Origin: an uncultured Dehalococcoidia bacterium
Lineage (GTDB): Bacteria > Chloroflexota > Dehalococcoidia > SZUA-161
Length of the DNA: 55,738 nt
Reading direction: 5' to 3'
Assembly: GCA_964524995.1 (NCBI GenBank)
Contig: CAZGDV010000004.1
Coordinates: 1 to 55,738, forward strand
The position numbers and the translations under genes were made by a program. Below are positions 29,993 to 55,738 of the stretch, one piece after another. Every line of letters begins with the position of its first letter. Position 1 is the first letter of the stretch. The notes beneath the pieces are model-generated. The model saw only the letters and a program-made list of their open reading frames with translations, did no database searches and was not told the origin of the DNA.

Positions 29993-30036
29993 ACGTACTC
30001 CAAAGGCACCGCTCCAGACTGTCCCAGCGCTCGTGG

Positions 30037-31469: not shown

Positions 31470-31499
31470 CCTTGGGCTTCAAGGTCTGGTCCATGTGAG

Positions 31500-34300: not shown

Positions 34301-34316
34301 AACGGAGGTGCCACAG

Positions 34317-34904: not shown

Positions 34905-35510
34905 GGCTACGACAAGCTGGTTCAGGCCGAGCTCGAAGGTCTTGTAGCACTCGATTCTGAAGTGGCCATCCCCGGCAACTATTTCTTGCAGCGTCCGCTC
35001 ATTGTAGTTCGCCTGGTGTGGGCTGTACATCTCCAGTTCCTCGTGCTTGACCCCGAGCAATCGCTTGAATGCCCTAACGAGCCTGTCCCCAGCTGCAGAA
35101 GGTGTCGTGATGACCAGGTGGCCACCGGGTTTCAGCAATGATCGGCATTGCTTGAGCACCACGGTAGGATCGTGGAGATGCTCTATGACGGCGAGCAGCA
35201 CGATGGTGTCGAACTCCGATCGCACCACATCGAGGAGATTGCCATCCTGCTCGATATCGATACAATGAAATTCCCATTCCGGCTTCTGCTCACGCAACTC
35301 CCGTATCACGGCCTCCTGGATGTCTATCCCCACATATCTCTGGCCTCCGGCCAAGTAGTCTGCGAGCGAAGACTCACCGCCACACCCGATATCGAGCACA
35401 TCACCCTTGAGCCATGGTCTGACTTGAGCGCATCGCTTTCGGCTCAGGTACCGGGCGATAGTCCTCGCGTAGAGACCGGTCGCCAACCTGGTGTATCTGC
35501 CGTATGACAC
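34896..35510 (-). CDS. Class I SAM-dependent methyltransferase
   Basis: VLDIGCGG, YVGIDI, FDTIVLLAVIEHL, LKPGG.L.ITTP; probable GTG start at 35510 directly after the upstream stop (the track extension to 35762 overlaps another gene). Confidence 0.88.
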   Translation of the reverse strand: MSYGRYTRLATGLYARTIARYLSRKRCAQVRPWLKGDVLDIGCGGESSLADYLAGGQRYVGIDIQEAVIRELREQKPEWEFHCIDIEQDGNLLDVVRSEFDTIVLLAVIEHLHDPTVVLKQCRSLLKPGGHLVITTPSAAGDRLVRAFKRLLGVKHEELEMYSPHQANYNERTLQEIVAGDGHFRIECYKTFELGLNQLVVASG

Positions 35511-35511
35511 T

Positions 35512-38500: not shown

Positions 38501-38658
38501 ACGGCGGTGAGCCCAAAGAACCCCAGGTAGACCCACAAAGGTGGCCAACCTACAAGAGGCCTGGCCCGGAGCCACACAAGTGCTGAGCTGCATGCCGTGC
38601 GTGCAGCCGCGAGACGGTGCGGGCTTCTTCGCTTCTTCCTTGATTTCTTGCGGCTCAC
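35512..38658 (-). CDS. GT-C (TMTC/PMT-like) membrane glycosyltransferase fused to CBM4/9-like and ConA-like extracellular modules (1048 aa)
   Basis: RFQPL....Y..YH......H..N..LLF.L...LF.......AIAW, E.....P TMTC-like pattern over about 11 TM helices; C-terminal NLL.N..F motifs and a Y..LNGEL beta-rich segment. Confidence 0.72.
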   Translation of the reverse strand: MSRKKSRKKRRSPHRLAAARTACSSALVWLRARPLVGWPPLWVYLGFFGLTAVLYAALLSDLPRADHLMFMSNFREGGMSMADLKRSLFFEFFGSDKRFQPLAFPVVYLQWKVFGTNFLMYHLTTIGVHALNATLLFLLVRRLAPSALFSLFIAALFLTAATHLDAIAWTVHTYVLLQVSCILLAVLFLLEWQRSSRPALLYLSYLFIFIQMFFTEAGVVFPLLLFAGTLVLWRHNRATMGDAVRRSAILTIGVYAVFLLAFGVFAILDPRSMPGELLSSGNILRAIWGTIIHFGSSALLHNTVYSSEIVVDDMVYFVPITWPSLSPTSGTAIGLVIGNTVAVIAVVTLLLQLRVPPSGRRSLVLLVALGGLAFSFLLLLVRPTSYAISQSRYAYIPTLTVVSLLAILLAQRFRPDLAGLAGKNDPGLGRFRKVAIVLAIGCLVVLSMGRTMTGAQEVASARADTNGVYYAAREFVAEPENAGARLFVSASTYPSHEKLAWGADIIPDLFLSSQAVTKNLSEATHVLREGPIIEQAPMRSMPRIEFAGRGGNGEFYQDLSDQASELAGRLVTLNVTARAALCEAVAPFIWSDVGGYVMGDFFTAAEELECREVTIAIPQDAKAVRVGLAFTRTTLAWVSELDFREVTSNTGNLLPNSDLKRWSAGGGPFTDAGDMWADGWLIDLRGESEMAVSRVVEQSGETIALAEYSHDDESYLVCNVPNPDSLIGHTATLSAMLRADAGKAVRLSMEWDREGGAWSDFHPGDGNWHLMSLAATVPEDGVDFLTLSVVLDRDCSVQIKSPTLMTTLSRPGNLLENPTFQGWDEDSLPVSAGPVAMEVADGWWQSVEGESALSSWVVEVAPPAATANPDDFSVRFGLMPTGWPGEPLEMFGFTSATRENPEGWFLRLLYGVGADSPQAGYPRLELGHREGTSEQVVFCSRPLPTETRMNHYVVGRDHGVFYVILNGELVEKRADNTGEAFRDMELELGEVYSYVYPYYQHPVPYFAYTHVQVGESEMSVADKPLGHVFGEISFNVYGFMPYHVSLGW

Positions 38659-38664
38659 TGCAGA

Positions 38665-41600: not shown

Positions 41601-44598
41601 GCCCGCTCGTCTTGATAGTGAGTGTGCCGCCATGTGCCTCCGAGAATTCGAAGGAGCCGACAGACTGCCAAGGCATGTTCGCCTCTTGATCCGGGGCAAC
41701 AGTCATGTCGCTGAAGACGACCCAGTCCGGTATGAGTGGACGTTGGCTGGCGGCGACTATCTGTTCAAGGCCCAGCGTTGCGAGTTCACTGTGGTCCAGC
41801 CCATCCTCGTAGACCGAAAACACCTCAGCGGCGGATAATGCTTGGTTGAACACGGCGAGACTGTCCACGCTCCCCAGGAATTGATCGTCCTCCCCCCAGA
41901 AGGATCTCCCAACCTGCGCAAAGTCGATGAATTGCCCGGAAAACTGCATCGTGTCGACCTGATATGACACATCGAGCACCCCATTAAGGTAGGCCGACAT
42001 GGTACCCGCTGCCTCGTCAAAGACGACCGTTACGTGTGTCCAGTCATCGGCCGGCACCTCACCGAGCGAAGAGCGGCGATTCTCTCCAGCCTGGACCATC
42101 AGCCTGCCGCAGCCACCGTCCTCGAACCCGATGGCGAACATATCACCCTCGCCCCCCGGAGATACAAACGGGCTGAGCTGCCCCTCATCGTCGATTATGA
42201 GTTTCCCTGCATGACCGTCGTCGTCAAGCGCGAGGATGGTGGCGTCCCGATCAGTCTCTTGTGGCCGCACCCAGAAGCTAACCGTGAGTTCGTCGCTGAG
42301 GTAGAGGCCAAAGACGTTATTTCGTCCCCTGGCAGTCGCTTGGCCTTCGCCGCCCTCGAACGCCACTGCGGAGTCTGTGCTTCCCTCAGACCTGAGAGAG
42401 TCGTCCAACTGGAGTGAGAGATGGCGGTTCCATCCGGACAGGTCCCTCGTCAGTGAGCCGGAGTCATCGCCCATCGTGTAGTAGGCCTCGAGCGAGGCCA
42501 TGAAGGAGGTAGGCTCGTCCAGGTGAACGAGAAGGTAGTCCGAGTTGATGTCTTCGGTGACGAAGTAGGTCGTCAGATGGTGCTGTAGCGGTCGTGCTTT
42601 ACGGCTCTTGTCGACCAGGGCGTAGTAGTGTATCTGGTCGGCTGACACCACCCCCTCAGCAATCAGCCCCTCCCGCAGTTCCCTCAGCCTCGCGAGCCGG
42701 TAGTTGAAGTTCTTGATCCCCACTGCGTACTCGATTTTCTCTCCGTCTCTCACATCCTCATAGTGGTACTCATGAAGGAAAGCGTCGTCAGGCAACCCGT
42801 CGACGATCAACTCCCAGTCTGACACAAAGAGAGCATACTGCGGCCTGATTAGAGAATGGGCAGTCTGCCAGTCTCCGTTCTCTATCGGGACCACTTTCGT
42901 TTCCTGCAGATACGAACCGAGCACGAATCCCCGCCGCCCCATGTACTCATCGTGCATAGGGAATGTCTCAGCCCCGTTCTGCCACTCATTATTCAGGTTG
43001 TAGAACACGATGTCGCCATAAGAAGTCATCTCCCCGACCTCGCTGGCGACTGCGAACCCCTCGGCAAGGGCATCTCGCGAGACGTGAACACCCCACGTCC
43101 TCTCGGGACTGATCTCATTGGGGTACTCGCCGAGATAGGAGGTTGTGTTAGCCAGGAAGGCGACTACAGGAATGATGACTATCAGACCCGTCACGCCGAA
43201 CTTGAACATGCTCTTCTCGAAGATACCGGCGCCAGTGGCGTCGTGCCGAGACTGCCCCGCAAGATGACGCCGGAAGGAACCGAAGGCGTTTGTCCAGAAG
43301 AGGGCAATTGCGAGGCCAAGAGCGAGCCCCACGAACGTAAGGGCATGCAGCGGATGGTATACCTCCAGAGCTTTGGGCATGACGAGGCGCCAGATGAGAA
43401 AGCTTGCCGCGAGCCACAAGAGCACATTGCTCGGGCTGAAGCCACGTTCGAACCTCAGCATGCCCCTGGGATTGTCGTAGTTCTCCAGGAACTTGACCAG
43501 TACCACCATTGCCAACAGTGCCCAGATGCCCAGTCCGAATGCCTCGGAGTAGTAGCGGTTCACGGTGCCGAATATCTCCGTGGGAAAGAATCCTGGTCTC
43601 ATGGCGGCGCCAGTCCCTAGCGTCCTGTTCCAGACTACGCTCCAGGTGTCGTGCCAGGCAGCGGAGAAGCCTCCCACCGACCACATCAACTGCAGGAAAT
43701 GGAGCCCGAAGGCGGACACGGGCGCGGCGATGAACAGCAGGATCCTCTTTAATGGAAATGGTTTCGCACGACTGAGCACGTAGTACCCGACGATGAATAC
43801 CTGCAGGAAGAGGCTGTACTCGAAGGAGTTGCACGCCTGTAGGAAGACGAGAAGCCATACCCCTGCCAAGGCCAGGCGTCTGAGACGTGGCCTCCGGAGC
43901 ACCCTCTCGTCACGATGCGCGGCGGCGAAGAGGGCCATCGCGGCTGATACGAGGAATATGTCATATGTCTGCGGGGACAGGCCGTCCATGTGCTCCATGA
44001 AGACCACGGACAAGCCTGCGACTGCCGCTCCAATAAGTGCGGCCGGCCTGCTGAAGAAGTAGCTGAAGAACCTGTAGAACAGAAGCAGTGCGCAAGCGCT
44101 CAGGAACACCGAGAAGGCTTCGCACGTATAGCGGCCCCCACCCAGCGCCAGTATGACCCCATTGACCATTCCATACAGTGGAGGCGAATGTGTGTAATAC
44201 TCATCGAGGAAGTAGGCAGAGCCAACCACCCCGGGGTGATAGTAGGTGAGGAACCCATGCTCTATGAAGCCCTCGTCAGCGAAATGGCGGGCCGCCGACA
44301 TGGTCTGGGCATCGCCCGGTGCCCAGCCACTCCATCTCAGCTCATACCCTGCCCGCACCAGGCCGAAGACCAGGATGAAAAGCGCGAAGCTCACCACCAG
44401 CACGTTGCAGACGCGCTTGCTGTTCGCTGCCACCAACGTAAGCCCTTTGAGTCCCACGTCTCCCCGCCATGGAACAGGCCACCCTCTGGCGACGGTTCGC
44501 TCAAAGAAGGATGCGGTGAGGCTGGCAAACACCACCGAAGGTAGTATCAGCCTCCGTACAAGACCCCTGCGAAGCTCTATGGGCATGGGTGAGAGCAT
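38665..44598 (-). CDS. Giant GT-C (ArnT/PMT-like) membrane protein fused to a LamG domain and five tandem ConA/lectin-like repeats (1977 aa)
   Basis: N-terminal GDAQT..AARHF...YYTHSPPL loop plus many TM helices; LamG pattern LTVSFWVRP...WTHVTVVFD...YLNG..F.GS.D...VFN.ALS..EV; five ~190-aa repeats. Confidence 0.78.
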   Translation of the reverse strand: MLSPMPIELRRGLVRRLILPSVVFASLTASFFERTVARGWPVPWRGDVGLKGLTLVAANSKRVCNVLVVSFALFILVFGLVRAGYELRWSGWAPGDAQTMSAARHFADEGFIEHGFLTYYHPGVVGSAYFLDEYYTHSPPLYGMVNGVILALGGGRYTCEAFSVFLSACALLLFYRFFSYFFSRPAALIGAAVAGLSVVFMEHMDGLSPQTYDIFLVSAAMALFAAAHRDERVLRRPRLRRLALAGVWLLVFLQACNSFEYSLFLQVFIVGYYVLSRAKPFPLKRILLFIAAPVSAFGLHFLQLMWSVGGFSAAWHDTWSVVWNRTLGTGAAMRPGFFPTEIFGTVNRYYSEAFGLGIWALLAMVVLVKFLENYDNPRGMLRFERGFSPSNVLLWLAASFLIWRLVMPKALEVYHPLHALTFVGLALGLAIALFWTNAFGSFRRHLAGQSRHDATGAGIFEKSMFKFGVTGLIVIIPVVAFLANTTSYLGEYPNEISPERTWGVHVSRDALAEGFAVASEVGEMTSYGDIVFYNLNNEWQNGAETFPMHDEYMGRRGFVLGSYLQETKVVPIENGDWQTAHSLIRPQYALFVSDWELIVDGLPDDAFLHEYHYEDVRDGEKIEYAVGIKNFNYRLARLRELREGLIAEGVVSADQIHYYALVDKSRKARPLQHHLTTYFVTEDINSDYLLVHLDEPTSFMASLEAYYTMGDDSGSLTRDLSGWNRHLSLQLDDSLRSEGSTDSAVAFEGGEGQATARGRNNVFGLYLSDELTVSFWVRPQETDRDATILALDDDGHAGKLIIDDEGQLSPFVSPGGEGDMFAIGFEDGGCGRLMVQAGENRRSSLGEVPADDWTHVTVVFDEAAGTMSAYLNGVLDVSYQVDTMQFSGQFIDFAQVGRSFWGEDDQFLGSVDSLAVFNQALSAAEVFSVYEDGLDHSELATLGLEQIVAASQRPLIPDWVVFSDMTVAPDQEANMPWQSVGSFEFSEAHGGTLTIKTSGLNPGHYKVSEPRFDDRRGVTAEVRMKLVGAATTGYQGACFTLQDGSREGKLTFYPDRITLRDQNDEVYTHSMSTGDGFHTYRLCIVNGQLALYVDGSLLETVQLKKVVTLKDIAFGDLSREPGENIHAEIDYIIYSTDAAEPPAPRPATLAASASTESKWHSSSAPAILGRADPNGIWTLGGEFNVLDCADDVVTLQTNGNNVGYFVHFDGGLDNSIGSSAEITLRMLDGPNVERSSFLFSIQDGTRDGNLIVEPDRIVIRDGTEDSTIHEMDTTGGFHTYRLALIRNALKAFVDDELVADVVLKDYSSVRAIVWGDVCPDDKVNVCAQVKRVAYTASVTDSPTSDLVPLEPPTGAVGAVDGMPHVTKISDMRALPNTEQVSPWQAEGILGEAGVAEGMLTIATSGANTAYYSHTDDRFDNSIGATVEARIRVETLGQSCQRACVAVRDGLREAKMVLYPDGVSISDGDDLRETYAMDTTGGFHLYRMAVRGDTAHLYVDGELAVSAVLSNRSDAKGIVFGDLSPVDGENMRVTVDYVAYTVDGALSPDGTPVPGISTSPSVQEPDGVGAVEPSDAGTEPPSEWNCVMEMDVSPETVDEHWSAGGSFEVNQASDGVLVVRTSASDIGYIECRDDRLDNSVGTTVELTLRIVDASYDGYQGACFYVQDGTHEAKITFYPDRISIRDQNDERATFHMDTTDAFHVYRLAVIEDVLRVYVDSELAAKATLGNRIAGRSLLLGDLSQEAGENIHALVDYLAYSSTGAYAPDGSLLGPEIVESGADSVLPSGWTGYADMSVPPWQQDDRWIVRGNFDIRRTSGGVLTLKSSWSDTAWLECQEDDLDNLRGVTVEVRLKVVQAASHGHQGSCLSVQDGEREAKLTFYPDRVSIRDQNQEKSIHRMDTTDAFHTYRLTMRDDILHVYIDGFPRAIGLLNGVSTKGIYLGDLSAVEGENMHAEVDYLLYSVENTYPPSDLPSPDGW
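38690..41727 (-). repeat. Five tandem ~190-aa repeats (approximate bounds)
   Basis: Shared consensus DM...P...W...G....T...G.T.E.R......QG.C..VQDG.RE.K..FYPDR..IRD....MDT...FH.YRL......YVD......GDLS...GEN....DY..YS; DNA similarity visible, e.g. 38926-38980 vs 39540-39591 vs 41409-41460. Confidence 0.9.
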
Positions 44599-44671
44599 AG
44601 TTACAGAAAGACCATTGAGCTCGGTTGAAGCCGAGTTCGTTTGACTGGATAGTGAGAGCCGCTTTGACTGC

Positions 44672-45283
44672 TCAAATACGTGCTGCCAGGAACTCGTCTA
44701 GTTCTGCGCTGACAACGACATCATACAGACGAAAGAAGTCGTCCATGGCATTCCGAAGCTCTGCCGCTATAACTCGTCCCGTCTCCGTATAGAATCTGTC
44801 GTAGAAGAAGCCGATGTAGTTTCTTGCTTTCCTCATCGCTCCTTGGACTTGCTTGCCGTCGTACACCATGCGATAGCCGAACACCCGGGCGAAGCCGAGC
44901 GGCCCGACCGACTGGAGCTTGTCGGCGTCCCAGAGTACCTCGGCCTCCCTGGTGAGCTTGGGCAAATCGTTGGCATGCTGAGATATCGCGTAGCAGACCT
45001 GCTCGATGAAGGCCTCAGGCGCCCGTATGCTCTCCAGGAAGGCTCCGGCCTCCCGAGCCCCGATCGCGGCATGCTCTGCGCCCACGCCTTTGGCTATGTC
45101 ATGGAGATACGCCGAGATGACGCTTATCTCTTCATCAGCACCTTCCCTTCTCGCCAGCCACCTCGATATCTCCACCGTCAGCTCTACGTGCTCCATAGTG
45201 TGATCGAAATCCTGGTCTTTGTGCCGCTCGCGAGCGTACTCGCGGATTCTCTGGACTTGCTCCAGGCTAAGAACGAACGGCAT
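44672..45283 (-). CDS. HD-domain phosphohydrolase
   Basis: H..EHV...AYLHDIAK...H...GA...DADKL motifs; ATG 45283 after GGAGG (the track extension to 45454 overlaps the upstream gene). Confidence 0.88.
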   Translation of the reverse strand: MPFVLSLEQVQRIREYARERHKDQDFDHTMEHVELTVEISRWLARREGADEEISVISAYLHDIAKGVGAEHAAIGAREAGAFLESIRAPEAFIEQVCYAISQHANDLPKLTREAEVLWDADKLQSVGPLGFARVFGYRMVYDGKQVQGAMRKARNYIGFFYDRFYTETGRVIAAELRNAMDDFFRLYDVVVSAELDEFLAARI

Positions 45284-46757
45284 CGGCCTCCCTCTGTGCG
45301 AATTCTCGGCCCTTTTCGGGCGAATGCCTGAACACATCCTGGCGCAGACTCCGCGCGTATATCTTGAGGGACTCAGAAAACGTCGTCTTCGTGACATAGA
45401 TCTTGCGCCGGAAGGCATACATCTTCGCAACGTGATACGAGAGCGTGAAGCCAATGTTCATGGGAAGGCGTAGAAGGAGCCTGGTGATCAGATGGCGGGT
45501 CCACGGGAATACCACTGCCACCGGCCCGAGCACCGCGAGATTGCGCTGCAGGTTCCTCTCTTTAGCGGTGAAACACGTCAAAGGTGTCTCGAACTGATAT
45601 GACGTGTGCATCCTCTCATACTCAGGAGAGTACGCGCCCATGGCGATGGTCTTGTCGCCCAGTTCAGTTCCGGGATAGGGATGGAACTGCAGGAACTCGG
45701 CCCAGTCCACGCGACATTGCAGAGACAGGTTCAAGGACTCCAGGTCATTGGCAAACGTTGTGCCCGGCAGCCCGATGATGCAGTTGGTGAACGTGTAGAT
45801 GCCGTACTTCTCGCAGAGCCGGTGCGAGTCGACAATCTGCTCGTTAGTCATCCTCCTGTTGAGCAGACTCTCCCGGATTTGCTGATTGCCGGCCTCGATG
45901 GACATGCTGATGGTCCGGCAACCGGCCTCCTTCATCAGCTTGACTATGTCCTCCGTCAGAAGATCACAGCGTGTCAGGGCGAAGAACGGCAGACCAATCC
46001 TCCTCCTGTACTTCCTGGAGAATTCCTCTAGCCACTCGTCAGCCCGGAAGGCGAAGACATCATCGTAGAACTTCACTGTGGACAGGGGCCACTTCGCCAT
46101 GACCCTCTGTATGTCCTCGACCACATGATCGACGGAGTGCCGTCGAACGACCTTGCCCTTGCCCTTGTAGATCTCGCGCCATCTTGTATTGAAGCAGTAT
46201 GAACACCGATAAGGGCAGCCCCGGGACGTTATGAACGACTTCAAGAGCGATTGGCCCATCATTGGCGTAGCACTGTACAGCAGATCGTAGTCCGGGAACG
46301 GCAGGCTGTCGAGGTCCTCAACCAGATTGCGTACAGTCGAAGAGTCGTGGTTGCGAGTGACGATGTTGGGGATCCCATCGACCTCGCGACCGGAGTCCAG
46401 GGCGCGGAGAACATCCACGATAGCGCCTTCGCCCTCACCCATGCAGATCGCATCCAGAGTCGTGTGGATCAGATCCCCGGGGTAGAAGGTGGGATGCGGC
46501 CCACCCATGATTGTGAAGACGTCCGGGAACTCCTGCTTGATCCGGTTGTTGGCCCTCAAGTAATGCTTCGCTTCCCCGGTGGACGAACTGTACGCTACGA
46601 CGTCCGGCCTGACCTCGGCGACACTGTCAACAGGATCGCTCCGGTTCAACTCACACAGAAACGTCTCGTGCCCTTCTTTCCTGGCCATGGCCGAGATGAC
46701 GGCTGGACCCAGGGGAGCTATGAAGTTCTCGCTCTTGAAGACGAAGAGCACCCTCAT
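45267..46757 (-). CDS. Cobalamin-binding radical SAM enzyme (class B type)
   Basis: N-terminal B12-binding fold (PDVVAYS, IMGGPHPT), TSRGCPYRCSYC CxxxCxxC motif, FYDD.F, SIEAG, FHPYPGT. Confidence 0.92.
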   Translation of the reverse strand: MRVLFVFKSENFIAPLGPAVISAMARKEGHETFLCELNRSDPVDSVAEVRPDVVAYSSSTGEAKHYLRANNRIKQEFPDVFTIMGGPHPTFYPGDLIHTTLDAICMGEGEGAIVDVLRALDSGREVDGIPNIVTRNHDSSTVRNLVEDLDSLPFPDYDLLYSATPMMGQSLLKSFITSRGCPYRCSYCFNTRWREIYKGKGKVVRRHSVDHVVEDIQRVMAKWPLSTVKFYDDVFAFRADEWLEEFSRKYRRRIGLPFFALTRCDLLTEDIVKLMKEAGCRTISMSIEAGNQQIRESLLNRRMTNEQIVDSHRLCEKYGIYTFTNCIIGLPGTTFANDLESLNLSLQCRVDWAEFLQFHPYPGTELGDKTIAMGAYSPEYERMHTSYQFETPLTCFTAKERNLQRNLAVLGPVAVVFPWTRHLITRLLLRLPMNIGFTLSYHVAKMYAFRRKIYVTKTTFSESLKIYARSLRQDVFRHSPEKGREFAQREADAVRS

Positions 46758-47695
46758 CTGGACACCTGCTCCGCAAGAGCGCCGACCCAGGAAGCAAGCC
46801 GGTTGGTGATATTGTCGACGCTCAGTCCGATAGTTGCTCGCAGGTACTCCCGGCTTCCATACTCACGAACGAACTGATCCGGCATGCCAACCCGCTTGAA
46901 CCGGCAATTCAGGCCCCTCTCGGCAATTAGCTCCGCTATCGCACTGCCTATTCCCCCCGTGATGAAGTGCTCCTCGAGCGTTATGACGTTTTTCGACCCG
47001 TTGATAACGTCCGAGAGCAGTTCGGCGTTGAGAGGCTTGATCCTGTAGAGATCGACGACGCCCACACTGATGGACTGTTCAGACAGGAGCTTGGCTGCAT
47101 CGAGAGCCGTCGCCACCATACGGCCGGTGGCAATGATGCAGAGGTCGGTGCCCGTACTCAGTACGCTCGCGCCGGCAGACAAGTCTTCGACGGTGTTTGT
47201 GTGGATGAGCGGCTCGCCGGTCCGATCGAGTCTTACGTAGACGGGGCCGGGCGTCTCGTAGGCCATGAATGCGAATGTGGCAGCCGTTCTATTGTCCGAA
47301 GGGCTCAGGACGGTCATTCCAGGGAGCTGCCGCATCATGGCGATGTCCTCGGTTCCATGATGGGTAGGCCCGAGGATAGAGTAGTCCATTCCCGCGCCGA
47401 CGCCTATCATCTTGACGGGCAAGTTCTGACAACACACGTCCACCCTGACCTGCTCATAGCAGCGCATCGTGACAAATGGCACTATCGCGTAGGTATAGAC
47501 TATCTTGCCACTCATCGCTAGGCCCGCCGCGACTCCTATCATGTTCTCCTCGGCGATACCGACGTTTATGCAGCGCTGTGGAAGGTCCCTCCTCAGGGCA
47601 TCGAGCACCAGAGCCCCCGTATCAGAGGTCAGCACGACGACCCGCTCGTCTCGCGCCACGGTCTCGTATAGTGAAACAAAGAAAGCATCTCTCAT
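46754..47695 (-). CDS. Transketolase-like protein, C-terminal (Pyr + C) subunit
   Basis: NVGIAEENM.G.AAGLA..G, R.YEQVR.D, GPTHH..ED, GP.YVRL, LEEH...GG.GS; ATGA overlaps on both sides. Confidence 0.93.
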   Translation of the reverse strand: MRDAFFVSLYETVARDERVVVLTSDTGALVLDALRRDLPQRCINVGIAEENMIGVAAGLAMSGKIVYTYAIVPFVTMRCYEQVRVDVCCQNLPVKMIGVGAGMDYSILGPTHHGTEDIAMMRQLPGMTVLSPSDNRTAATFAFMAYETPGPVYVRLDRTGEPLIHTNTVEDLSAGASVLSTGTDLCIIATGRMVATALDAAKLLSEQSISVGVVDLYRIKPLNAELLSDVINGSKNVITLEEHFITGGIGSAIAELIAERGLNCRFKRVGMPDQFVREYGSREYLRATIGLSVDNITNRLASWVGALAEQVSR

Positions 47696-48513
47696 CTCGC
47701 CAACTCCTTTCTAGCCTGCTCCAACTCCTCCCTGTTCGGCGTCCTGTAATGCCAGATCGGCTTGCTCTCCATGAAGGAAACGCCCTTCCCCTTCGTGGTT
47801 CGGGCAAGCACGGCAAGCGGCTTTCCGGAACTGCGGTCCCGGATGTCGGCAAGCGCCGCCTGAATGCTATCGAATGAATGTCCATCTGCGGTCCGCACTT
47901 CCCACCCGAAGGCCTCGAACTTCGCCTCGAGGGGCTCCAAAGCCAGTGCCTCCTCTGTGAAGTCTATGGCCTGGAGAGTGTTGCGGTCGATGATGGCCAC
48001 GAGATTATCAAGACGTTGGTGAGCAGCAAACATCACGGCCTCCCAAACGGAGCCTTCCTGGCACTCACCATCGCCAAGAAGGGCAACAGTTATGTAGTCG
48101 TCGCCATCCATCTTGGCGCACAGGGCCATTCCTGCCGCTATCGAGAGACCGTGTCCCAGCGAGCCGGTGAATGCTTCCACACCCGGCACGTTCGACTCGG
48201 CGTGAGCGCCTAACCGGCTTCCCAGCTTACAGAACGACCGCAGTTCGCCCACCGGGAAGAAGCCGAGGTCCGCCAGTGCCGGGTAAAGGGCCAGACAGGC
48301 TTGACCCTTGCTGAGCACGAACCTGTCACGACCCTTCCATTGCTCATCCTCGGGATTGAACCGCAGGACTCCACCATGGTATAGGGCAACGAGCAATTCA
48401 GTGCACGAGAACGATGGAGCCAGATGCGCACCGGCAAGCCCCACAGTCATCTCCACGATCTCATTGCGTATCCAGTTTGCCTTCCTCTCCAATTCTGCCG
48501 CTTCTAACATCAC
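47692..48513 (-). CDS. Transketolase-like protein, N-terminal (PP) subunit
   Basis: RDRFVLSKG, TGSLGHGL, ThDP motif GDGE.QEGS.WEA...IDRN, T.KGKGVSFME...WHY. Confidence 0.93.
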   Translation of the reverse strand: MMLEAAELERKANWIRNEIVEMTVGLAGAHLAPSFSCTELLVALYHGGVLRFNPEDEQWKGRDRFVLSKGQACLALYPALADLGFFPVGELRSFCKLGSRLGAHAESNVPGVEAFTGSLGHGLSIAAGMALCAKMDGDDYITVALLGDGECQEGSVWEAVMFAAHQRLDNLVAIIDRNTLQAIDFTEEALALEPLEAKFEAFGWEVRTADGHSFDSIQAALADIRDRSSGKPLAVLARTTKGKGVSFMESKPIWHYRTPNREELEQARKELAR

Positions 48514-48538
48514 GACTATCCCCTTTCATTCAAAATGG

Positions 48539-49336
48539 CTATGCGCTCATGGCGACTATCTTGTCAGCTCGGAGTACACGGACCCGAACGAATAAGCGAC
48601 CAAGATCATATGCCGCGGACAGCACTGACCCCAGGGTCAGTATCTTGGACCGGCCGTGCATCCTCTTGCCAAGCCGCACCGGCACCTCGGCGAATGTGAA
48701 ACCTGCACGTGCCCCCCTTACCAGGCATTCCGTCTGATACGTGAAACCTGTGGCCACGGGCCTGACCGCGTCGAGAACCTGGCGTCTATAGATGACATTC
48801 CCCGTTGTATAGCTGAACGTCGTGCCGAACAGCAGGTTCACTACATGCAGATAGAGCTTCGAGACGAAGCGCCGCTGTCGGCTGCGCACCTCTCTATTCG
48901 TCACGTACGGCACTATTATGTCAACTTGATCGAGAAGCGGCAGGTACCTCAGCAACTCCTCCGGCTCGTTCTCGGCATCCCCGGGGAACCAGGTAATTGC
49001 CGCCTTCGAGGAAGCTCGAATGCCGTCCAAGAAGCAGGTACCTATGCCCGCCGGTTTGCTGTGCTCCAGCACGTGAATCCGGGGCTCGCTCTTGGCAAAG
49101 GTGTTTGCGATGGCACCGGTCTTGTCGGTGCTACCATCATTCACCACGATGATCTCCCAATCCACTCCGTCCCGGCCAAGGACGCCGATCAGCCCGTCCA
49201 GTGCCAGGGGCAGGTTGCTTTCTTCGTTGAGCGCCGGTACTATCACGGTCAACGACTTCGAAGGTGGCGGGACCGGATTCGTGTCCTCACCTGTGGTGAA
49301 GAGCAGAACTGCTGTGCTATCGGCCTGGCTCTGCAT
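48539..49336 (-). CDS. GT2 glycosyltransferase, polyprenol-phosphate glycosyltransferase (DPM1/Ppm1-like)
   Basis: VIVPALNEE.NL, EIIVVNDGSTD.T, FPGDA (DXD variant), GF.YQTE.L.R, F.EVPV...R..G.SK. Confidence 0.87.
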   Translation of the reverse strand: MQSQADSTAVLLFTTGEDTNPVPPPSKSLTVIVPALNEESNLPLALDGLIGVLGRDGVDWEIIVVNDGSTDKTGAIANTFAKSEPRIHVLEHSKPAGIGTCFLDGIRASSKAAITWFPGDAENEPEELLRYLPLLDQVDIIVPYVTNREVRSRQRRFVSKLYLHVVNLLFGTTFSYTTGNVIYRRQVLDAVRPVATGFTYQTECLVRGARAGFTFAEVPVRLGKRMHGRSKILTLGSVLSAAYDLGRLFVRVRVLRADKIVAMSA

Positions 49337-49355
49337 GGTCGGTGTTCATTCTCCT

Positions 49356-50486
49356 TCAGTTTCTTAGTGCGCGGGTCACGATAGCTCCAACAAATGAGGC
49401 AATCGCCGGTGCTGCGGTCAATCCAGGGGATTCGATGCCAATGAGATTGACGAAACTGGGTAGTCCTCTTTCCACTTCGTCTCTGATAACGAAGTCTCTG
49501 AAGACATCATCGGGACCCTGCAACGTGGGACGTATGCCGGCCATCTCAGGCTCAAGGTCTTCAGCCTCCACAAACGGTAGAAACTCCACCACCGACTGGT
49601 AAAACAGCTCCCCCAGCCCGCAGTCGACGGAGTAGTCCTCGTCGTGAACATAGCGACTGCTTGGCCCGAGAAGGACTCTGCCGTCCAGCGTAGGCGTCGC
49701 GTGTATGCCTAGACCAGCGCCCGACGACCCCGGCAGCGGGTAGACGGGTCTCCCGATCAATCTGCCCTTCTGTGAACTGAGCCTGAAGTACTCGCCCTTA
49801 CACATGTGGATTCTGTATCCACAGTCATCTATGTCCAGACCCGCCGCCTCAGCCAGCTCGTGGCTCGCCAACCCCGCACAGTTCACCAGCACTTTCGTGT
49901 CGAAGGAGAAGCTGTCCCGGTCGTCCAAATGCACAGTGAAGCCGCCATTTCTGCGCTCAACGGCTTGAACCTTCGACCGATACACAACCTTCCCGCCCCT
50001 GCACCTCACTTTGGCCACGAAATGCCTCATCAGCGCGAAGACGTCGACTACGCCTGTTGACGGTGAAAAGAGGCCAGCCAAGGCAGTCACGTTTGGCTCC
50101 AGCCTCTTCACTTCCTGTCTCGACAGCAGCTCAAGGTCATCTACACCATTGCTCCTGCCCCTGTCGTGCAGTTCCTCCAGTTCAGCTACACGCTGCTGAT
50201 CAGTAACCACTATGATCTTGCCGGTCCTCTTGTGCGGGAGGTCATGCTTGCTGCACAGCCTGTACAGCATCTCTCTCCCTTCCACACAGGTCCTGCCCTT
50301 CAAGGAATCGGCCGGGTAGTATATCCCGGCATGGATAACCTGGCTGTTCCTGCTGCTGGTGCCAAGGCCATAGCCATCGTTCTTCTCCAGCACTACCACG
50401 ATTCTGTCATCCCTCGCCACCTCGGCTGCCACGGCGAGCCCAATGACGCCAGCCCCTACAACCGCTACATCAACGTGGGTAGTCAT
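49356..50486 (-). CDS. FAD-dependent oxidoreductase, L-2-hydroxyglutarate oxidase (LhgO) family
   Basis: DVAVVGAGVIG, EK..G.G.GTSSRNS.VIHAGIYY, KGEY, LG.H.T, GIRP, GIESPGLT; ATG 50486 (track 50516). Confidence 0.9.
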   Translation of the reverse strand: MTTHVDVAVVGAGVIGLAVAAEVARDDRIVVVLEKNDGYGLGTSSRNSQVIHAGIYYPADSLKGRTCVEGREMLYRLCSKHDLPHKRTGKIIVVTDQQRVAELEELHDRGRSNGVDDLELLSRQEVKRLEPNVTALAGLFSPSTGVVDVFALMRHFVAKVRCRGGKVVYRSKVQAVERRNGGFTVHLDDRDSFSFDTKVLVNCAGLASHELAEAAGLDIDDCGYRIHMCKGEYFRLSSQKGRLIGRPVYPLPGSSGAGLGIHATPTLDGRVLLGPSSRYVHDEDYSVDCGLGELFYQSVVEFLPFVEAEDLEPEMAGIRPTLQGPDDVFRDFVIRDEVERGLPSFVNLIGIESPGLTAAPAIASFVGAIVTRALRN

Positions 50487-50527
50487 ACTGTCGTTCGCCT
50501 CACGCACATGCGGCACGCTCCGAGCGC

Positions 50528-51538
50528 CTAGGCGATTCGCTCAAGCTGCAGCATCTTCACGTTGTAGTACCGTGGATCGTCCATCGGATCGGGTACCTTG
50601 CCTCCCTCGAACGCCTCGCAGAGCGACCGGATCGCGTCCTCTATCGTGTGCCTGGGCCGCCACCCAAGCTCTCTGAGTATCTTCTCGGAGGAGATGTGGT
50701 ACGATCGGGGATCGTCTGTCGCTTCCTGAACGACATCGATTTCGGCACGGCCCACTATTTCTCTGACCATCTTGGCGAGTTGGCTCACCGTGTGGTTCTC
50801 ACAGCCAGCGTTGAAGACCTTGCCGGCAACCAGTTCATCGGGCAGTTCGACAAGCTGGGCATACAGATCAGTTATGTCCTGGATGTTTATGTTCGGGCGC
50901 TTCTGTGTCCCTCCGATTACTTTGATGCGTCCGTTATTCACCGCGTGGTTGGTCAGGATATTGACGATGAGGTCCAATCGGAGACGAGGAGAATACCCAC
51001 AGACGGTAGCGGAGCGAATCACGACCGGCACGAAATCAGGCGATTGTCGGCTGAACAGCACCTCTTCGCAGAGGGCCTTGTATTTCGAGTAGTCTGTAAG
51101 GGGCTCCAGTGTCATGTCTTCGGTGACGTTCTCGACTTCCTTGATGCCGTACACGCTCGAGGTCGAGGCGTAGATGAAGCGCTTCACGCCGCTGTTCCTG
51201 CACACATCGACGAGGCCGAAGAAGGCATCATAGTTGATGGACTTGCCGAGGGCAGGATCGAGCTCAAAGCTGGGGTCGTTGGATATGCAAGCGAGATGGA
51301 GCACGCAGTCGCTCCCGGGAATTGCCTTCTCCAGCAAACCTATGTCCCTTATGTCTCCCTTTATCTGCACAAGTCTTGGATGATTCCGGACCTCGGCAAG
51401 CGCCTCTTCCCCGTACAGGTACAGGTCCAGCACTCTGACCTGATGTCCCCTTGCCAGGAGCTTCGGTACGAGGACACTGCCGACGTATCCCGCCCCCCCG
51501 GTCACCAATACATTCTGTGTTGCCGAAGTCATGGTCAT
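50528..51538 (-). CDS. NAD-dependent nucleotide-sugar epimerase/dehydratase (extended SDR)
   Basis: VLVTGGAGYVGS, HLA.ISND, YASTSSVYG, catalytic YSKYK; start 51538 or 51532. Confidence 0.92.
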   Translation of the reverse strand: MTMTSATQNVLVTGGAGYVGSVLVPKLLARGHQVRVLDLYLYGEEALAEVRNHPRLVQIKGDIRDIGLLEKAIPGSDCVLHLACISNDPSFELDPALGKSINYDAFFGLVDVCRNSGVKRFIYASTSSVYGIKEVENVTEDMTLEPLTDYSKYKALCEEVLFSRQSPDFVPVVIRSATVCGYSPRLRLDLIVNILTNHAVNNGRIKVIGGTQKRPNINIQDITDLYAQLVELPDELVAGKVFNAGCENHTVSQLAKMVREIVGRAEIDVVQEATDDPRSYHISSEKILRELGWRPRHTIEDAIRSLCEAFEGGKVPDPMDDPRYYNVKMLQLERIA

Positions 51539-51621
51539 CCGCCTTCCTCTCGTTCTCACTCGTTGCTTCATTAACTGTTGACCGTATGCGCAAGCCGTAA
51601 GTCTCAACCGCGCTTGTGCGC

Positions 51622-53157
51622 CTATTTCAGTAGCGTCGTTACGTACCTGGACAGCTGAACAGGGTCAACAACCGTTCTATTGCCGACAATGCGTATCGCG
51701 AGGGCGCCAACTGCGTTCCCAATGAAGCCAACTAGCTCGGGCGGAAAGCCAGCAGCCACACAAGGCGCTGTCACGGCGAAGTAGGCATCGCCAGCGCCTA
51801 TCCTGTCCACTGCCTCACGTGAGAACACCGGTACTTCCAGGAATCCACCGCTGTTGGCGTAGACCAGGGAACCACGATGCCCCCTGGTGACAACCGCCCG
51901 GTGGCAGCGCAATTCGCTAGCTATCCCGCACACGAGATCCTCCAGCGGGCTGCAATTGTCGTGAGTCGCGAGCCTAGCCTCCGTCTCATCTATGCACACG
52001 TAGTCCGCGCGATCATACCTGGTCACCAGATTGAAGCCCAAGTTTGCCGAATTGGTCTGAACATTGATGGCCAGGAACCTCGATTCATCGCAGAGTGCTG
52101 CGATTATCCGATCGTCTATGAATCCGTGGCCGTAGTCCGCGACAACGACCAAGTCATAGTCGGGGAGGCGCGACCGTAGATAGCAGGCCGCCTCGTGACT
52201 CACGATGTCCGGCAGCAGGTCAGTGCCAATGAACGAGACCTCGAACATCTTCCGTAACAGGTCGACTTCGACGAAGCGTCGTTTGACAGGCGTACAGGTG
52301 TCCGGGCGGCAAAACAACGTGGGCACAACGTTCGGTCTGAGGTGCCCACGTACGAAGCCTTCACGGGAGTCCTCACCACCCAGCACGGTGACCAGTTCCA
52401 CATCATCGCAGAACCCAGCAACGCAATTGGCTATGGCAAGGATGCCTCCCGCGAAGACCTCTTCATATAGGTACCTGGCCGGGATTAGTATCTCCTTGGG
52501 GGATTTCCCCATTGGGCTGCAGTAGTGGTACTCATCTATGATCGTGTCACCTATTACCAGTACCTTGAGCCCTTTGAGAGATTGAAGAAGATCGATGATT
52601 CCCTGTGGAGTGAATGAGCTGCGAAACTCGGTCAGGAAACCCCTCGCTTCCTCCGAGAAGACGTCGAAATGGTTATTCAGCAAACTTGTTGAACTGAAGG
52701 TTATGTCATCTGTGAAGTGAATGCGACCGCCAACGGACTCAACGGCTTGCTCCTCATCTACTATCTTGCCGGTGAGATCATTCTTGGCGTCCGCATACTC
52801 ATTGCCCTTCGCGTACACATCCGGCCTGAGCTTCAGTATTGTGTCAACCGCTATGGGCCCCTCGTTCAACGCCACATAGTCGACACACTCCAGTGCGGCG
52901 AGGGACTCGACTCTGAGTTGCTGGCCGAAGACCGGCCTGCCGGGGCCCTTGCCCACGTGTTCGTCCCTGGTAACCGTGACAACCAAGACATCCCCCTGTC
53001 GCTTGGCTGATTCGAGATGTCTTATGTGCCCCGGATGAAGCAAATCGAAGACTCCGTGACACTGCACCACGGCCTTACCTTGCTTCCTCAGGTCTTCGGC
53101 AATGGCACAGACCTCATCCAGCGACTTGAACTTCGAACCGTTGATGCCCTGCGTCAA
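51622..53157 (-). CDS. Bifunctional nucleotidyltransferase/PfkB kinase (HldE/RfaE-like, reversed domain order)
   Basis: N-terminal GVFDLLHPGH..KGPGRP, C-terminal VIGD.IID.Y...DYGHG...DRIGAGDAYFA. Confidence 0.9.
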   Translation of the reverse strand: MTQGINGSKFKSLDEVCAIAEDLRKQGKAVVQCHGVFDLLHPGHIRHLESAKRQGDVLVVTVTRDEHVGKGPGRPVFGQQLRVESLAALECVDYVALNEGPIAVDTILKLRPDVYAKGNEYADAKNDLTGKIVDEEQAVESVGGRIHFTDDITFSSTSLLNNHFDVFSEEARGFLTEFRSSFTPQGIIDLLQSLKGLKVLVIGDTIIDEYHYCSPMGKSPKEILIPARYLYEEVFAGGILAIANCVAGFCDDVELVTVLGGEDSREGFVRGHLRPNVVPTLFCRPDTCTPVKRRFVEVDLLRKMFEVSFIGTDLLPDIVSHEAACYLRSRLPDYDLVVVADYGHGFIDDRIIAALCDESRFLAINVQTNSANLGFNLVTRYDRADYVCIDETEARLATHDNCSPLEDLVCGIASELRCHRAVVTRGHRGSLVYANSGGFLEVPVFSREAVDRIGAGDAYFAVTAPCVAAGFPPELVGFIGNAVGALAIRIVGNRTVVDPVQLSRYVTTLLK

Positions 53158-54173
53158 TTCGTCACCTCACCCAGGGCAAGAACCTTGTTCCTGCCAAGGT
53201 ATGTGAACCATTCCTTCGTTGCCTCTTCGATTCTGTCGGGTGTCCAGACCGGCGCGTCTCTCCAGTATTCGATGTTGCGCAGCATCTCCCTGACGCCGTC
53301 GTCAAAGCTGACCTCGGGTTCCCAGCCTACCAGCCTACGTATCTTGGATATGTCCACGTGAGTACAGTCTGGCTCTCCCGGCCTCTTGGGAACGTAGACC
53401 ACATCTCCACCCAACAACTCGACCAAGCGATTAATGCTGTATGTGCCCCCACTGCCCACGTTGAATACCTCGTTCTGAAGGCCCGACTCCGCCGCCATCA
53501 CAAGCGCCCGAATGGCATCGGTGACATACACGAAATCGCGAGTCTGCGTGCCATCTCCCACGACGCTAAAGGGCTGATTGTGCAGCTTCTGTGCCAGAAA
53601 CACGCCGAACACAGCACCATAGGTGCCGGAAGTCCGCGAACGGGGCCCATAGACGTTCGCGAGGCGTAGCGAGACAACTGGAAGACCGTAGACCTTGCCC
53701 CAATGCATGACGCATTCCTCGCCGACGTACTTGGTCAGCGCATACGGGTACTCCGGCCGAATCGGTGCGGTCTCGGGTGTCGGGAACACATCGGGCACCC
53801 CGTAGCACGACCCCGACGCACTGTAGACGAACCGGGCCACTTCAGCGCGACGTGATGCCTCAAGCACGTTGACTGTGCCAGTCACGTTAGAGCGGTAGTA
53901 CTCCAGCGGCTGCTTGATCGAGGGGACGATGTCGGCCAGCGCCGCCACGTGGAAGACCCAGTCAACCCCCTCGAACAGGGGTTCTATGGTCTCGTACTCT
54001 GCGATCTCCACATTGCAGAAGTTGATCTGAGCGGTACGGGCCAGGTGAGATAGGTTGTCGAGGCGACCGGTTGAGAGGTTGTCCAGAATGACGACGTCAT
54101 GGCCACTGTTCGCCAATTGCTCAACCAAGTGGCTACCGATGAATCCAGCCCCTCCGGTTACTAGTGTCCTCAT
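53154..54173 (-). CDS. NAD-dependent nucleotide-sugar epimerase/dehydratase (extended SDR)
   Basis: LVTGGAGFIGSHL, DNLSTG, H.AALADIVPS, catalytic YALTK, NVYGPR, GDGTQTRDFVYV.D, RPGEP. Confidence 0.94.
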   Translation of the reverse strand: MRTLVTGGAGFIGSHLVEQLANSGHDVVILDNLSTGRLDNLSHLARTAQINFCNVEIAEYETIEPLFEGVDWVFHVAALADIVPSIKQPLEYYRSNVTGTVNVLEASRRAEVARFVYSASGSCYGVPDVFPTPETAPIRPEYPYALTKYVGEECVMHWGKVYGLPVVSLRLANVYGPRSRTSGTYGAVFGVFLAQKLHNQPFSVVGDGTQTRDFVYVTDAIRALVMAAESGLQNEVFNVGSGGTYSINRLVELLGGDVVYVPKRPGEPDCTHVDISKIRRLVGWEPEVSFDDGVREMLRNIEYWRDAPVWTPDRIEEATKEWFTYLGRNKVLALGEVTN

Positions 54174-54808
54174 TCCGAACAGATGCGTTCAAGAGTGGTT
54201 GTTCTCAAACACTTGGTGATAAGGTGACATAGCAGGAGGTGAACATCCTCGACCTGTTCCATACAGTGGCACGGTACGGTAATGCATATGTCGGCCATAT
54301 CCTTCAGCTCTCCACCATCGAATCCGGTGAAGCCAATCGTCGTTGCTCCGCTTGCCGCCGCTGCGTCCACCGCCAGCAGTACATTCCTGGAGTTGCCACT
54401 TCCGCTTATCGCAACCAGCACGTCGCCTGGTGAGATCCAGGCAACCATAGACTGGACGAATATCTGATCGTAGGACTCGTCATTGCTCCAGGCCGTAACA
54501 AGCGCGATGTTCTCACACAGGGACCTGGACTTGAACGGGGGCTTGCTTGGTACCATTGCACCCTTGCAGAGGTCCGAGGCAAAGTGGATGGAGGTAGCCG
54601 CCGATCCTCCGTTGCCGCAGGTGAATACCGTTTGCTGCTTCCAGCGCGCTTCCTCCAGGCGGTGGATCACCTGGCCGACCCTATCTATTGGCAACCGCCG
54701 TATCACGTCAACGACGTCGGCCAGATATGAACACACCCCCTCGGCAACACACGAACTGCTTGTGACGTATGTGGAGATGCTCTCCACAATAGAGCTTTCA
54801 GTGGTCAC
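54170..54808 (-). CDS. gmhA: SIS-domain phosphosugar isomerase (GmhA-like)
   Basis: CGNGGSAA..HF..D, TA.SND..Y...F, GDVL.AISGSGNS.NV..A, G..GG.L; GTG 54808 after AAGGA (track start 54883). Confidence 0.88.
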   Translation of the reverse strand: MTTESSIVESISTYVTSSSCVAEGVCSYLADVVDVIRRLPIDRVGQVIHRLEEARWKQQTVFTCGNGGSAATSIHFASDLCKGAMVPSKPPFKSRSLCENIALVTAWSNDESYDQIFVQSMVAWISPGDVLVAISGSGNSRNVLLAVDAAAASGATTIGFTGFDGGELKDMADICITVPCHCMEQVEDVHLLLCHLITKCLRTTTLERICSE

Positions 54809-54915
54809 GTGACAGTTCCTTCCCCGTGAGGCCACCCTGCGCCGAGTGTAGTGCGCAGGTGTCCAACCCAAGTCGAAGTCCAAGCATTCGCGAGTCCATC
54901 ACACATTCAGACAGA

Positions 54916-54999
54916 AGTCTAGACTCGTACGCTGAAAAGCGGGTTAACACACTGCATACGGAATAAGATGACCATGAAAAACGGATTAGAATGAGTTAA
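54916..54999 (-). promoter_or_regulatory. 4+2 array of 11-bp direct repeats plus -10 box (copy 3)
   Basis: Minus strand from 54999: ttaactcattc/taatccgtttt/tcatggtcatc/ttattccgtat, 8-nt gap, ttaacccgctt/ttcagcgtacg, TAGACT at 54921-54916 (offset 78). Confidence 0.8.
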
Positions 55000-55140
55000 T
55001 CCGCTACGTTGGCGTGAGATTGCCGATCCAATGTCCGCACATCCCACACAGTTGGCGGACGCGACTCCATCGCCGGTTGGGACCTTTGCTCTCAGTAGCG
55101 GTCAGTCGAAGAACAGACAACTGGAGTCGCCCCACGGATA

Positions 55141-55169
55141 TTGAAAACAGCGTTGGCGTGTATCATAAT
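55141..55169 (+). promoter_or_regulatory. sigma70-type promoter of the terminal MarR gene
   Basis: TTGAAA (55141-55146), 17 nt spacer, CATAAT (55164-55169). Confidence 0.65.
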
Positions 55170-55270
55170 GTGGGCGGTTGATATCAGGCTGTCTCCCAGG
55201 GTTGGAGGCAAGGCAGACAGAGAATACCCACCATACTGGCTGATAAGTGATAAGTCGGAGGACCATGGCG

Positions 55271-55738
55271 ATGGCTAAAGCCAGCGAGAGAGGGGCCAAG
55301 AGACAACTACAGCGCTCGAAGAAGCCCAACGCCAAACCAGCCAAGATTCACCCGAAGGACGCCCCGGCCGACGCCGACCGCAGACTTTCCACTCTGCTCG
55401 ATCGGGCTAGAGGAGCTGTCGTCAGAGTGAAGGAGAGGGAGTTAGCGCCGGCTGGGATATCCACTGCCGAAGCAGCAGTCCTCTTCGCAATCGACAGTGT
55501 CGGCAACCCTGCCACTCCCTCGACTATCGCGCACTGGATACAGCGTGAACCTCATTCCACATCGAAGCTTCTGCAGCGAATGGAAAGAAAGGGGCTCGTT
55601 ACCAAGACCAAAGACCTGGCTCGCGGGAACTACGTAAGGGTCGAGATGACTGACAAGGGACACGCTGCATACGAGTACTCTCTCGCGGAGCAGAGTTCCG
55701 CCCGTCTCCTGGCATGTCTATCCGATGAGGAGAAGGCG
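55271..55738 (+). CDS. MarR-family transcriptional regulator (3' end runs off the window)
   Basis: Not in the track; translated by hand after GGAGGA: ...RELAPAGISTAEAAVLFAI...PATPSTIAHWIQREPHSTSKLLQRMERKGLVTKTKDLARGNYVRVEMTDKG..AY...LACLSDEEK; alternative ATG 55265. Confidence 0.92.
   Translation, partial: MAKASERGAKRQLQRSKKPNAKPAKIHPKDAPADADRRLSTLLDRARGAVVRVKERELAPAGISTAEAAVLFAIDSVGNPATPSTIAHWIQREPHSTSKLLQRMERKGLVTKTKDLARGNYVRVEMTDKGHAAYEYSLAEQSSARLLACLSDEEKA

Follow-up and report, generated by a model that had tools for sequence, protein, structure and literature searches.

What drives transcription of the long glycan operon headed by a gmhA-like gene near the right-hand end of the window (the whole 55,738-nucleotide stretch of an uncultured Dehalococcoidia bacterium analysed here)? 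Upstream of this gene, on the minus strand, lies an array of short direct repeats that ends in a -10 box, termed c3, and two further arrays of the same design, termed c1 and c2, lie on the plus strand beside the genes of two response regulators, RR1 and RR2. We propose that c3 is an activator-dependent promoter with an upstream operator for an OmpR-family regulator, namely RR1, RR2 or both, and we put the probability of this reading at about 75%. The repeats of c3 are very likely the docking site for a response regulator encoded 25 kb away.

Array anatomy and copies within the window

The c3 array spans positions 54916-55001 on the minus strand and comprises six T-(C/G/T)-T-(A/T)-A hexamers phased at 11 bp: four in succession, then a skipped slot, then the last two. 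Read from position 54999, the minus strand runs TTAACTCATTC TAATCCGTTTT TCATGGTCATC TTATTCCGTAT gcagtgtg TTAACCCGCTT TTCAGCGTACG agtc TAGACT. The repeat offsets given in an earlier note on this DNA (0/11/22/33/52/63, with the -10 box at 78) match this sequence exactly; the core hexamer T-(C/G/T)-T-(A/T)-A-N begins 2 nt ahead of each of these offsets, which shifts the end of c3 to 55001. The most distal hexamer, U4 (GATTAA, 54996-55001), is in 11-bp phase with U3 (TCTAAT, 54985-54990), U2 (TTTCAT, 54974-54979) and U1 (TCTTAT, 54963-54968). U1 begins 47 bp 5' of the start of the -10 box, a slot that is common to c1, c2 and two arrays from related loci (L003 and L004). The step from U1 to the next hexamer is 19 bp, compared to 11 bp elsewhere in the array. 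The proximal pair is composed of P2 (TGTTAA, 54944-54949) and P1 (TTTTCA, 54933-54938), which start 28 and 17 bp, respectively, 5' of the -10 box TAGACT (54916-54921); the identical TAGACT is found in c2 and in one array of the related locus L091 (L091d). U2 and P1 are weak hexamers, and the degenerate P1 sits at pho-box spacing from the -10 box (PMC1906773). From the position of the -10 box, transcription is predicted to start near 54909.

The other two copies are c1 (28218-28303, plus strand; 84-mer match at 28220-28303), which sits between RR1 and the MarR1-RR2 gene pair with its -10 box TAAACT at 28298-28303, and c2 (30035-30120, plus strand; 84-mer match at 30037-30120), which lies directly 3' of the RR2 stop codon. 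In an ungapped scan of both strands of the whole window, the three arrays are mutual best matches, with 44-52 identities over 84 positions against a background maximum of 39. Each has six direct-repeat units at 11-bp spacing, and all of them are intergenic and oriented toward downstream genes. The window contains exactly these three copies of the design, and zero arrays were found in the further 10 kb past its right-hand end (L005). For c3 itself, no natural variants were obtained from the contigs of four metagenome runs over 54600-55400, in which the one diverged strain (X8) does not span the array. A search of RNA runs returned none that contains this region.

Copies of this kind could in principle be remnants of a dispersed repeat, or T/A-rich sequence phased by chance, with no regulatory role, and the low information of a single hexamer (~6.7 bits per 11-bp unit) leaves some room for this explanation. 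Leave-one-out scans and shuffles oppose it. A matrix of the 11-bp unit was built from two copies and the third was scored at the six offsets, with ~111 kb scanned; in all three scans the left-out copy was the top non-training match. The scores were 33.7 bits for c3 (next best non-training match 5.2) and 39.4 bits for c1 (7.6), whereas c2, at 12.2 bits against 3.2, stood out by a modest margin. The c3 score corresponds to a z of 6.5 against all window positions, and was reached by 0 of 3000 shuffles of its own intergenic region (best shuffle 29.4). Furthermore, identity among the window copies amounts to 63-70% in the hexamer cores and 83-100% in the -10 box, compared to 36-52% elsewhere, which is the pattern expected of functional constraint, and the design is kept in other genomes despite unrelated spacers. 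The earlier note had argued from the distant, inverted position of c3 against a local duplication; a recent duplication is indeed unlikely and was rejected, given that the identity does not extend beyond the cores and the -10 box. Altogether, chance phasing or a dispersed repeat is already largely refuted, and we give it next to no weight.

Regulator genes and arrays in related Chloroflexota

The regulator locus of the window begins with the gene of a giant PAS/GAF histidine kinase of 3132 aa (18079-27477, plus strand; assigned with Pfam). The 3' end of this gene overlaps the start of RR1 (27452-28147, plus strand), for which reason the giant protein is presumably the cognate kinase of RR1. 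RR1 and RR2 (29225-29992, plus strand) are both OmpR-family regulators with 55% identity to each other. RR1 is the closer relative of the array-associated regulator clade (60-66% identity), whereas RR2 is a divergent paralogue whose nearest relatives outside the window are Chloroflexota proteins of only ~55% identity, which leaves orthology between genomes loose. All members of the clade have the recognition helix DSLRV[YH]IRRLR; as RR1 and RR2 share the same form, DSLRVYIRRLR, sequence alone does not assign the binder of the arrays. Against NCBIfam, neither protein reached an equivalog cut-off: RR1 scored 181 bits for MtrA (cut-off 300), 170 for YycF (340), 153 for KdpE (325) and 143 for PhoB (296), and RR2 scored 129 for YycF (340) and 120 for PhoB (296). 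Within the RR2 coding region, in the linker between the receiver and DNA-binding domains (29625-29679, plus strand), we observed a near-perfect 25-nt inverted repeat with a 5-nt loop; as RNA it folds with -49.1 kcal/mol (z = -8.0 against shuffles), and we found no explanation for it.

Elsewhere in the window, a type IV pilus cluster (4414-17865, plus strand) encodes pilin-like, PilB, PilC, PilO and PilM/N proteins and lies downstream of two hybrid receiver-PAS histidine kinases (5015-8137 and 8567-10126); a scan of the window with the array matrix found no array upstream of this cluster.

To follow the design into other genomes, a matrix trained on the window copies only was run over 1.56 Mb from 91 loci. 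All matches of at least 20 bits fell in loci of the RR1/RR2 regulator clade. One of them (21.7 bits, position 7736 on the minus strand of L011) falls within coding sequence and is probably spurious, so the matrix evidently yields false positives occasionally. Among 80 OmpR-family loci from a metagenome scan, only six belong to the clade (43-49% identity), and the best matrix score among the rest was 16.3 bits. Homologous regulators directly adjoin arrays in at least six loci (L003, L004, L009, L010, L012 and L091), of which those of L009 and L091 were found by the window-trained matrix and the other four by eye. In L003, an array of TGTAAT, TGTAAG and TGTAAC repeats lies between two regulator genes. 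In L004 and L010, the array comes after a kinase-regulator pair and before a small gene, and in L012 a regulator is followed by the array and an HTH_17 gene. The order in L009 is array, RR-A, array, MarR, RR-B, with the two arrays placed around a regulator-MarR-regulator module. Also in L009, a second TGTAAT-type array stands in inverted orientation between MarR and RR-B (~7352-7420), reading TATTAC three times at 11-bp spacing on the plus strand. Alignment of the L003, L009 and L004 arrays revealed invariant hexamers within completely diverged flanks. The placement beside regulator genes, which suits autoregulation, is thus the same for c1 and c2, which flank RR1/RR2 in the window, and for the arrays beside homologues in six loci.

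Arrays also recur in front of gmhA. Locus L091, reached through a GmhA homologue of 65% identity, has four matrix matches, at 34.4, 20.6, 16.1 and 10.6 bits, whereas the next best position scores 0.3. One precedes the regulator gene, one lies between the regulator and a MarR gene, one stands directly before gmhA-gmhB, and the divergent one, with TAGACT as its -10 box, precedes the gene of a GY-repeat/dockerin-like secreted protein. Locus L092 presents a kinase-regulator pair followed by four TCTAA repeats at 11-bp spacing with TAGACT, a NusG-like ORF, gmhA and gmhB; its regulator differs in the recognition helix, and its array is simpler, with no skipped slot. The NusG/RfaH-like ORF (9291-9806, plus strand), which has NGN and KOW motifs, is unannotated, the source annotation having an ORF on the opposite strand instead. 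In five further loci with gmhA homologues (L007, L008, L089, L090 and L093), gmhA lies inside other glycan operons with no regulator module or array, and four of them (L007, L089, L090 and L093) served as negative controls. Taken together, the arrays beside regulators in L091, L009 and L092, which in L091 and L092 also stand before gmhA, lend support to the tie that the earlier note had drawn between the c3 operon and the kinase/OmpR module.

MarR-family proteins are also encoded close to the arrays. The MarR1-like gene (28569-29171, plus strand), a weak match to Pfam MarR_2, lies between c1 and RR2, and the same regulator-MarR order is present in L009 and L091. Its start codon is uncertain, and the leader between the -10 box of c1 and the ORF is unusually long, at ~260 nt (28304-28568, plus strand). 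The MarR2 gene (assigned with Pfam) runs on the plus strand from 55265 to the window end at 55738, divergent from c3, and a generic sigma-70 scan assigned to it a sigma-70-like promoter, TTGAAA-17-CATAAT (55141-55169, plus strand). Past the window (L005, 1-9613), the next genes after MarR2 are an HTH_17 gene and those of a 1212-aa PAS kinase, a receiver-HD (HD_5) protein and a 449-aa sigma-70-family protein. The paralogues that adjoin c1 and face c3, together with the MarR genes in the L009 and L091 modules, might suggest that MarR-family proteins recognise the arrays. However, the repeats are direct, phased at 11 bp and present in four to six copies, and none of the three array regions of the window contains a palindrome of the MarR-operator type (an inverted repeat of ~16-20 bp), on which ground the idea of a MarR operator was rejected. 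Moreover, the arrays track the regulator and not MarR, for L003, L004, L010 and L012 have arrays with no MarR gene nearby. Recognition by MarR proteins is accordingly judged very improbable, and an OmpR-family regulator stays the preferred binder.

Promoter geometry and regulatory precedents

Eleven arrays from five genomes were aligned on the -10 box. Their hexamers occupy common slots that begin 16/17, 27/28, (37), 47/48, 58/59, 69/70 and 80/81 bp 5' of this box. In all 11 arrays the box has the form TAnnnT and keeps a fixed distance of 16-17 bp to the beginning of the last hexamer, P1, and P2 starts 27-28 bp before it, a slot that is filled in 10 of the 11, the exception being L091c. Because the 11 promoters use common slots and some related ones fill the position that is skipped in c3, the 19-bp step of c3 can be read as an unfilled slot in a series phased at ~10.5-11 bp. 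To our knowledge, promoter rules have not been established experimentally in Chloroflexota. At 17 bp 5' of the -10 box the three window copies have ATGCCT, ATCGGC and ACCCGC (the last in c3), and since these positions hold no TTGACA-like hexamer, the window copies have no -35 box. A proximal pair at a fixed distance from the -10 box, combined with the missing -35 box, is the geometry of a class II activator promoter. A generic sigma-70 scan found no other sigma-70 promoter on the minus strand upstream of gmhA.

The same layout could in principle serve repression, with regulator oligomers coating -90 to -20 and silencing an otherwise constitutive promoter. The hexamers come within 11 bp of the -10 box, where a bound protein could occlude polymerase, and OmpR-family regulators do repress some targets, including those Streptomyces PhoP operators that are listed as repression (PMC2275107). 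This explanation sits poorly with the lack of a -35 box in every window copy. In addition, nearly all aligned promoters have a proximal pair with pho-box spacing, a typical trait of activator-dependent promoters. We regard a roadblock as unlikely, and activation remains our preferred reading of c3.

OmpR/PhoB-family regulators bind direct repeats ~11 bp apart in head-to-tail arrangement, and the closest precedent for the arrays is found in the PHO boxes of PhoB (E. coli), SphR (Synechocystis) and PhoP (Streptomyces coelicolor), which are likewise built of tandem 11-bp direct-repeat units. The E. coli pho box consists of two 8-bp repeats with a 3-bp linker, located 10 bp upstream of a TAN3T -10 box (PMC1906773); in the arrays, too, the proximal pair stops ~10 bp short of such a box and stands in for the -35 box. 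Complex operators can reach six units in both cases: in Streptomyces PhoP operators, which have up to six 11-nt units, strong core units nucleate cooperative binding to weaker, degenerate extension units (PMC2275107). The arrays differ from the PHO boxes in the fixed skipped slot, which divides them into four and two units. The likeness does not extend to the rest of the Pho system: the PhoB (TIGR02154) scores given above place RR1 and RR2 outside the PhoB orthologues, the partner kinase is a soluble-looking 3132-aa PAS/GAF protein unlike PhoR, and the presumed targets, instead of serving phosphate uptake, are heptose, glycan and surface-protein genes.

The arrays might still be bound by an OmpR-family regulator other than RR1 and RR2 that is encoded at another place in the genome, such as a PhoB/SphR-type regulator of phosphate starvation, and the sugar operon would then be part of its regulon rather than of the giant-kinase module. 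Envelope remodelling under phosphate limitation occurs in other phyla, which counts for such a regulator, and the IRRLR part of the recognition helix is common to many OmpR-family proteins. The 8-bp units also resemble the SphR-type Pho box unit CTTAACCT, reading GTTAACCC in c3, TTTAACCG in c1 and CTTAACCG in L091, a similarity that is partial only (PMC1906773). Nevertheless, the arrays directly adjoin genes of this very regulator clade in the six or more loci described above, no pst or pho genes were found in the window or its 10-kb extension, and both regulators of the window stay far below the PhoB cut-off. A regulator encoded elsewhere is thus an improbable binder, and RR1, RR2 or both are preferred.

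The second precedent is the WalR/YycF/VicR group of Firmicutes, which provides the closest solved structures to the DNA-binding domain of RR1 (IRRLREKIEDDPSHP identical). The site consensus of WalR is TGTWAH-N5-TGTWAH (PMC4168254). The arrays resemble it in their T-(G/C/T)-T-W-A hexamers at 11-bp spacing, with exact TGTAAT/TGTAAG repeats in related loci, and the cell-envelope theme of the regulon is similar too. Among single hexamers, TGTTAA in c2 and c3 fits the half-site TGTWAH, and no adjacent hexamer pair in c1-c3 matches the full consensus without mismatch. The WalR likeness is restricted to the DNA-binding domain, as the full-length YycF scores of RR1 and RR2 are well under the cut-off, and even there the first half of the recognition helix differs (DSLRVY here, RTVDVT in WalR). 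Unlike the WalRK system, moreover, there is no WalK-type kinase, and the arrays have four to six units instead of two.

In Bacillus subtilis, the PhoP core binding region (e.g. that of tuaA) has four hexamer repeats with 11-bp periodicity at an activator-dependent promoter for cell-wall polymer synthesis. The arrays share with it the four hexamers of 11-bp period upstream of a promoter for envelope polymer genes, whereas the PhoP hexamer, TT(A/T/C)ACA, is unlike theirs, and the likeness is one of design. Overall, c3 appears to operate like a pho-box or WalR-type operator, yet by its sequence relationships it belongs to neither the Pho nor the WalRK system.

Because this design matches the precedents of OmpR/PhoB-family activators, we propose that regulator dimers on c3 recruit the polymerase. 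A phosphorylated regulator would bind the T-(C/G/T)-T-(A/T)-A hexamers, 11 bp apart, as head-to-tail dimers, and phosphorylated RR1 and/or RR2 would fill three dimer sites on c3. The proximal pair P2/P1, 28 and 17 bp before the -10 box, would take the position of the -35 box and recruit RNA polymerase in the manner of a pho box, and the four distal hexamers may contribute cooperative occupancy. Transcription would then begin near 54909 and proceed through gmhA into the ~20-kb glycan operon. With the same design, c1 would bring MarR1-RR2, and c2 the convergent operon for a surface protein, a flippase and GmhB, under the same control.

Predicted target operons and regulon

The first gene after c3 encodes a gmhA-like sedoheptulose-7-phosphate isomerase (54170-54808, minus strand; Pfam SIS_2). 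The earlier note had placed the array ~110 nt upstream of gmhA. This distance holds for the GTG start at 54808, which has a GGAAGGA Shine-Dalgarno sequence and gives a product of 212 aa, in agreement with homologues of typically 201-216 aa; the TTG start of the source annotation (54883, 237 aa) would leave a leader of only ~26 nt. A search of a genome collection with GmhA returned only two archaeal homologues of 36-46% identity and no close relative.

Twelve further genes on the same strand (34896-54173, minus strand), assigned with Pfam and NCBIfam, make up the rest of the presumed c3 operon. They encode an epimerase, an HldE-like nucleotidyltransferase/kinase, a second epimerase, an FAD oxidoreductase and a GT2 glycosyltransferase, followed in content by a split transketolase, a B12 radical-SAM protein and an HD protein, and by a 1977-aa LamG protein, a 1048-aa protein with no family match and a methyltransferase. 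The earlier note described c3 as heading a ~20-kb operon, and the gene arrangement agrees with this: all genes from 54808 to 34896 run on one strand, the gaps between them are -4 to +25 nt apart from one of 73 nt, and terminator-like sites across the operon show no excess over shuffles. Within the gene of the 1977-aa LamG / GH16-like protein (38665-44598, minus strand) there are four DNA repeats (families D6 and D9), each ~57-99 nt long and spaced 610-1215 nt apart, which are probably repeated domains.

Several features of the leaders were considered separately. An explanation by a riboswitch or leader RNA was dropped: the Rfam scan of the window gave one match only, a tRNA at 3955-4026 (plus strand), and the c3 leader RNA folds no better than shuffles (z = 0.35). 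The c3 leader also contains a 33-codon uORF (54798-54899, minus strand; ATG at 54899) whose stop overlaps the GTG of gmhA at 54808; it has no obvious Shine-Dalgarno sequence and may well be due to chance. An 8-nt match between the c2 and c3 leaders, GTGATGGA, was judged compatible with chance.

The operon headed by c2 (30241-34904, plus strand) converges on that of c3 and encodes a 319-aa Pro/Thr-rich membrane-anchored surface protein, a 528-aa multi-pass membrane protein, a flippase and a GmhB-like phosphatase. All four enzyme families of the nucleotide-heptose pathway (GmhA, kinase, GmhB and nucleotidyltransferase) are encoded in the two operons, with scores below or near the NCBIfam equivalog cut-offs: 112 bits for gmhA (cut-off 209), 104 for rfaE domain II (181), 92 for rfaE domain I (345) and 173.9 for GmhB (178). 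The HldE-like protein has a reversed domain order, with the nucleotidyltransferase first. As the GmhB-like gene (34245-34904, plus strand) is the last of the c2 operon and the GmhA-like and HldE-like genes (51622-54808, minus strand) belong to the convergent c3 operon, the putative nucleotide-heptose pathway is split between two array-headed operons. The shared design of c1, c2 and c3 leads us to propose that this pathway and the presumed surface targets are switched together.

We know of almost no experimental work on transcription control in uncultured marine-sediment Chloroflexota. The evidence supports a solid and conventional prediction: c3 would be part of an uncharacterised regulon that is governed by a clade of Chloroflexota regulators and has gmhA as a conserved target. 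A broader picture, which we offer tentatively and consider possible but somewhat doubtful, is that of a lineage-specific envelope regulon in the Chloroflexota, where a very large cytoplasmic multi-PAS/GAF kinase would signal to a WalR-like OmpR-family regulator, possibly in a cascade from RR1 via c1 to MarR1 and RR2. This regulator would read a promoter grammar of about seven slots and jointly induce heptose-glycan synthesis, a flippase with large unannotated, maybe GT-C-like, membrane proteins, and Pro/Thr-rich or GY-repeat surface proteins. Such a system would amount to a WalR-type surface circuit that arose outside Firmicutes and kept gmhA as a conserved target.

The binding of OmpR-family dimers to phased direct repeats is a textbook mechanism, so what the locus offers is annotation and a clean test system, not a new principle. 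Three promoters of strict common design in one genome, carried into related genomes, make up a testable regulon, and with the matrix and the slot positions, metagenome-assembled genomes can be searched for the complete regulon. For the organism itself, the prediction would link a giant multi-sensor kinase to the synthesis of cell-surface glycan, with a putative nucleotide-heptose pathway divided over two convergent operons that are predicted to be co-regulated.
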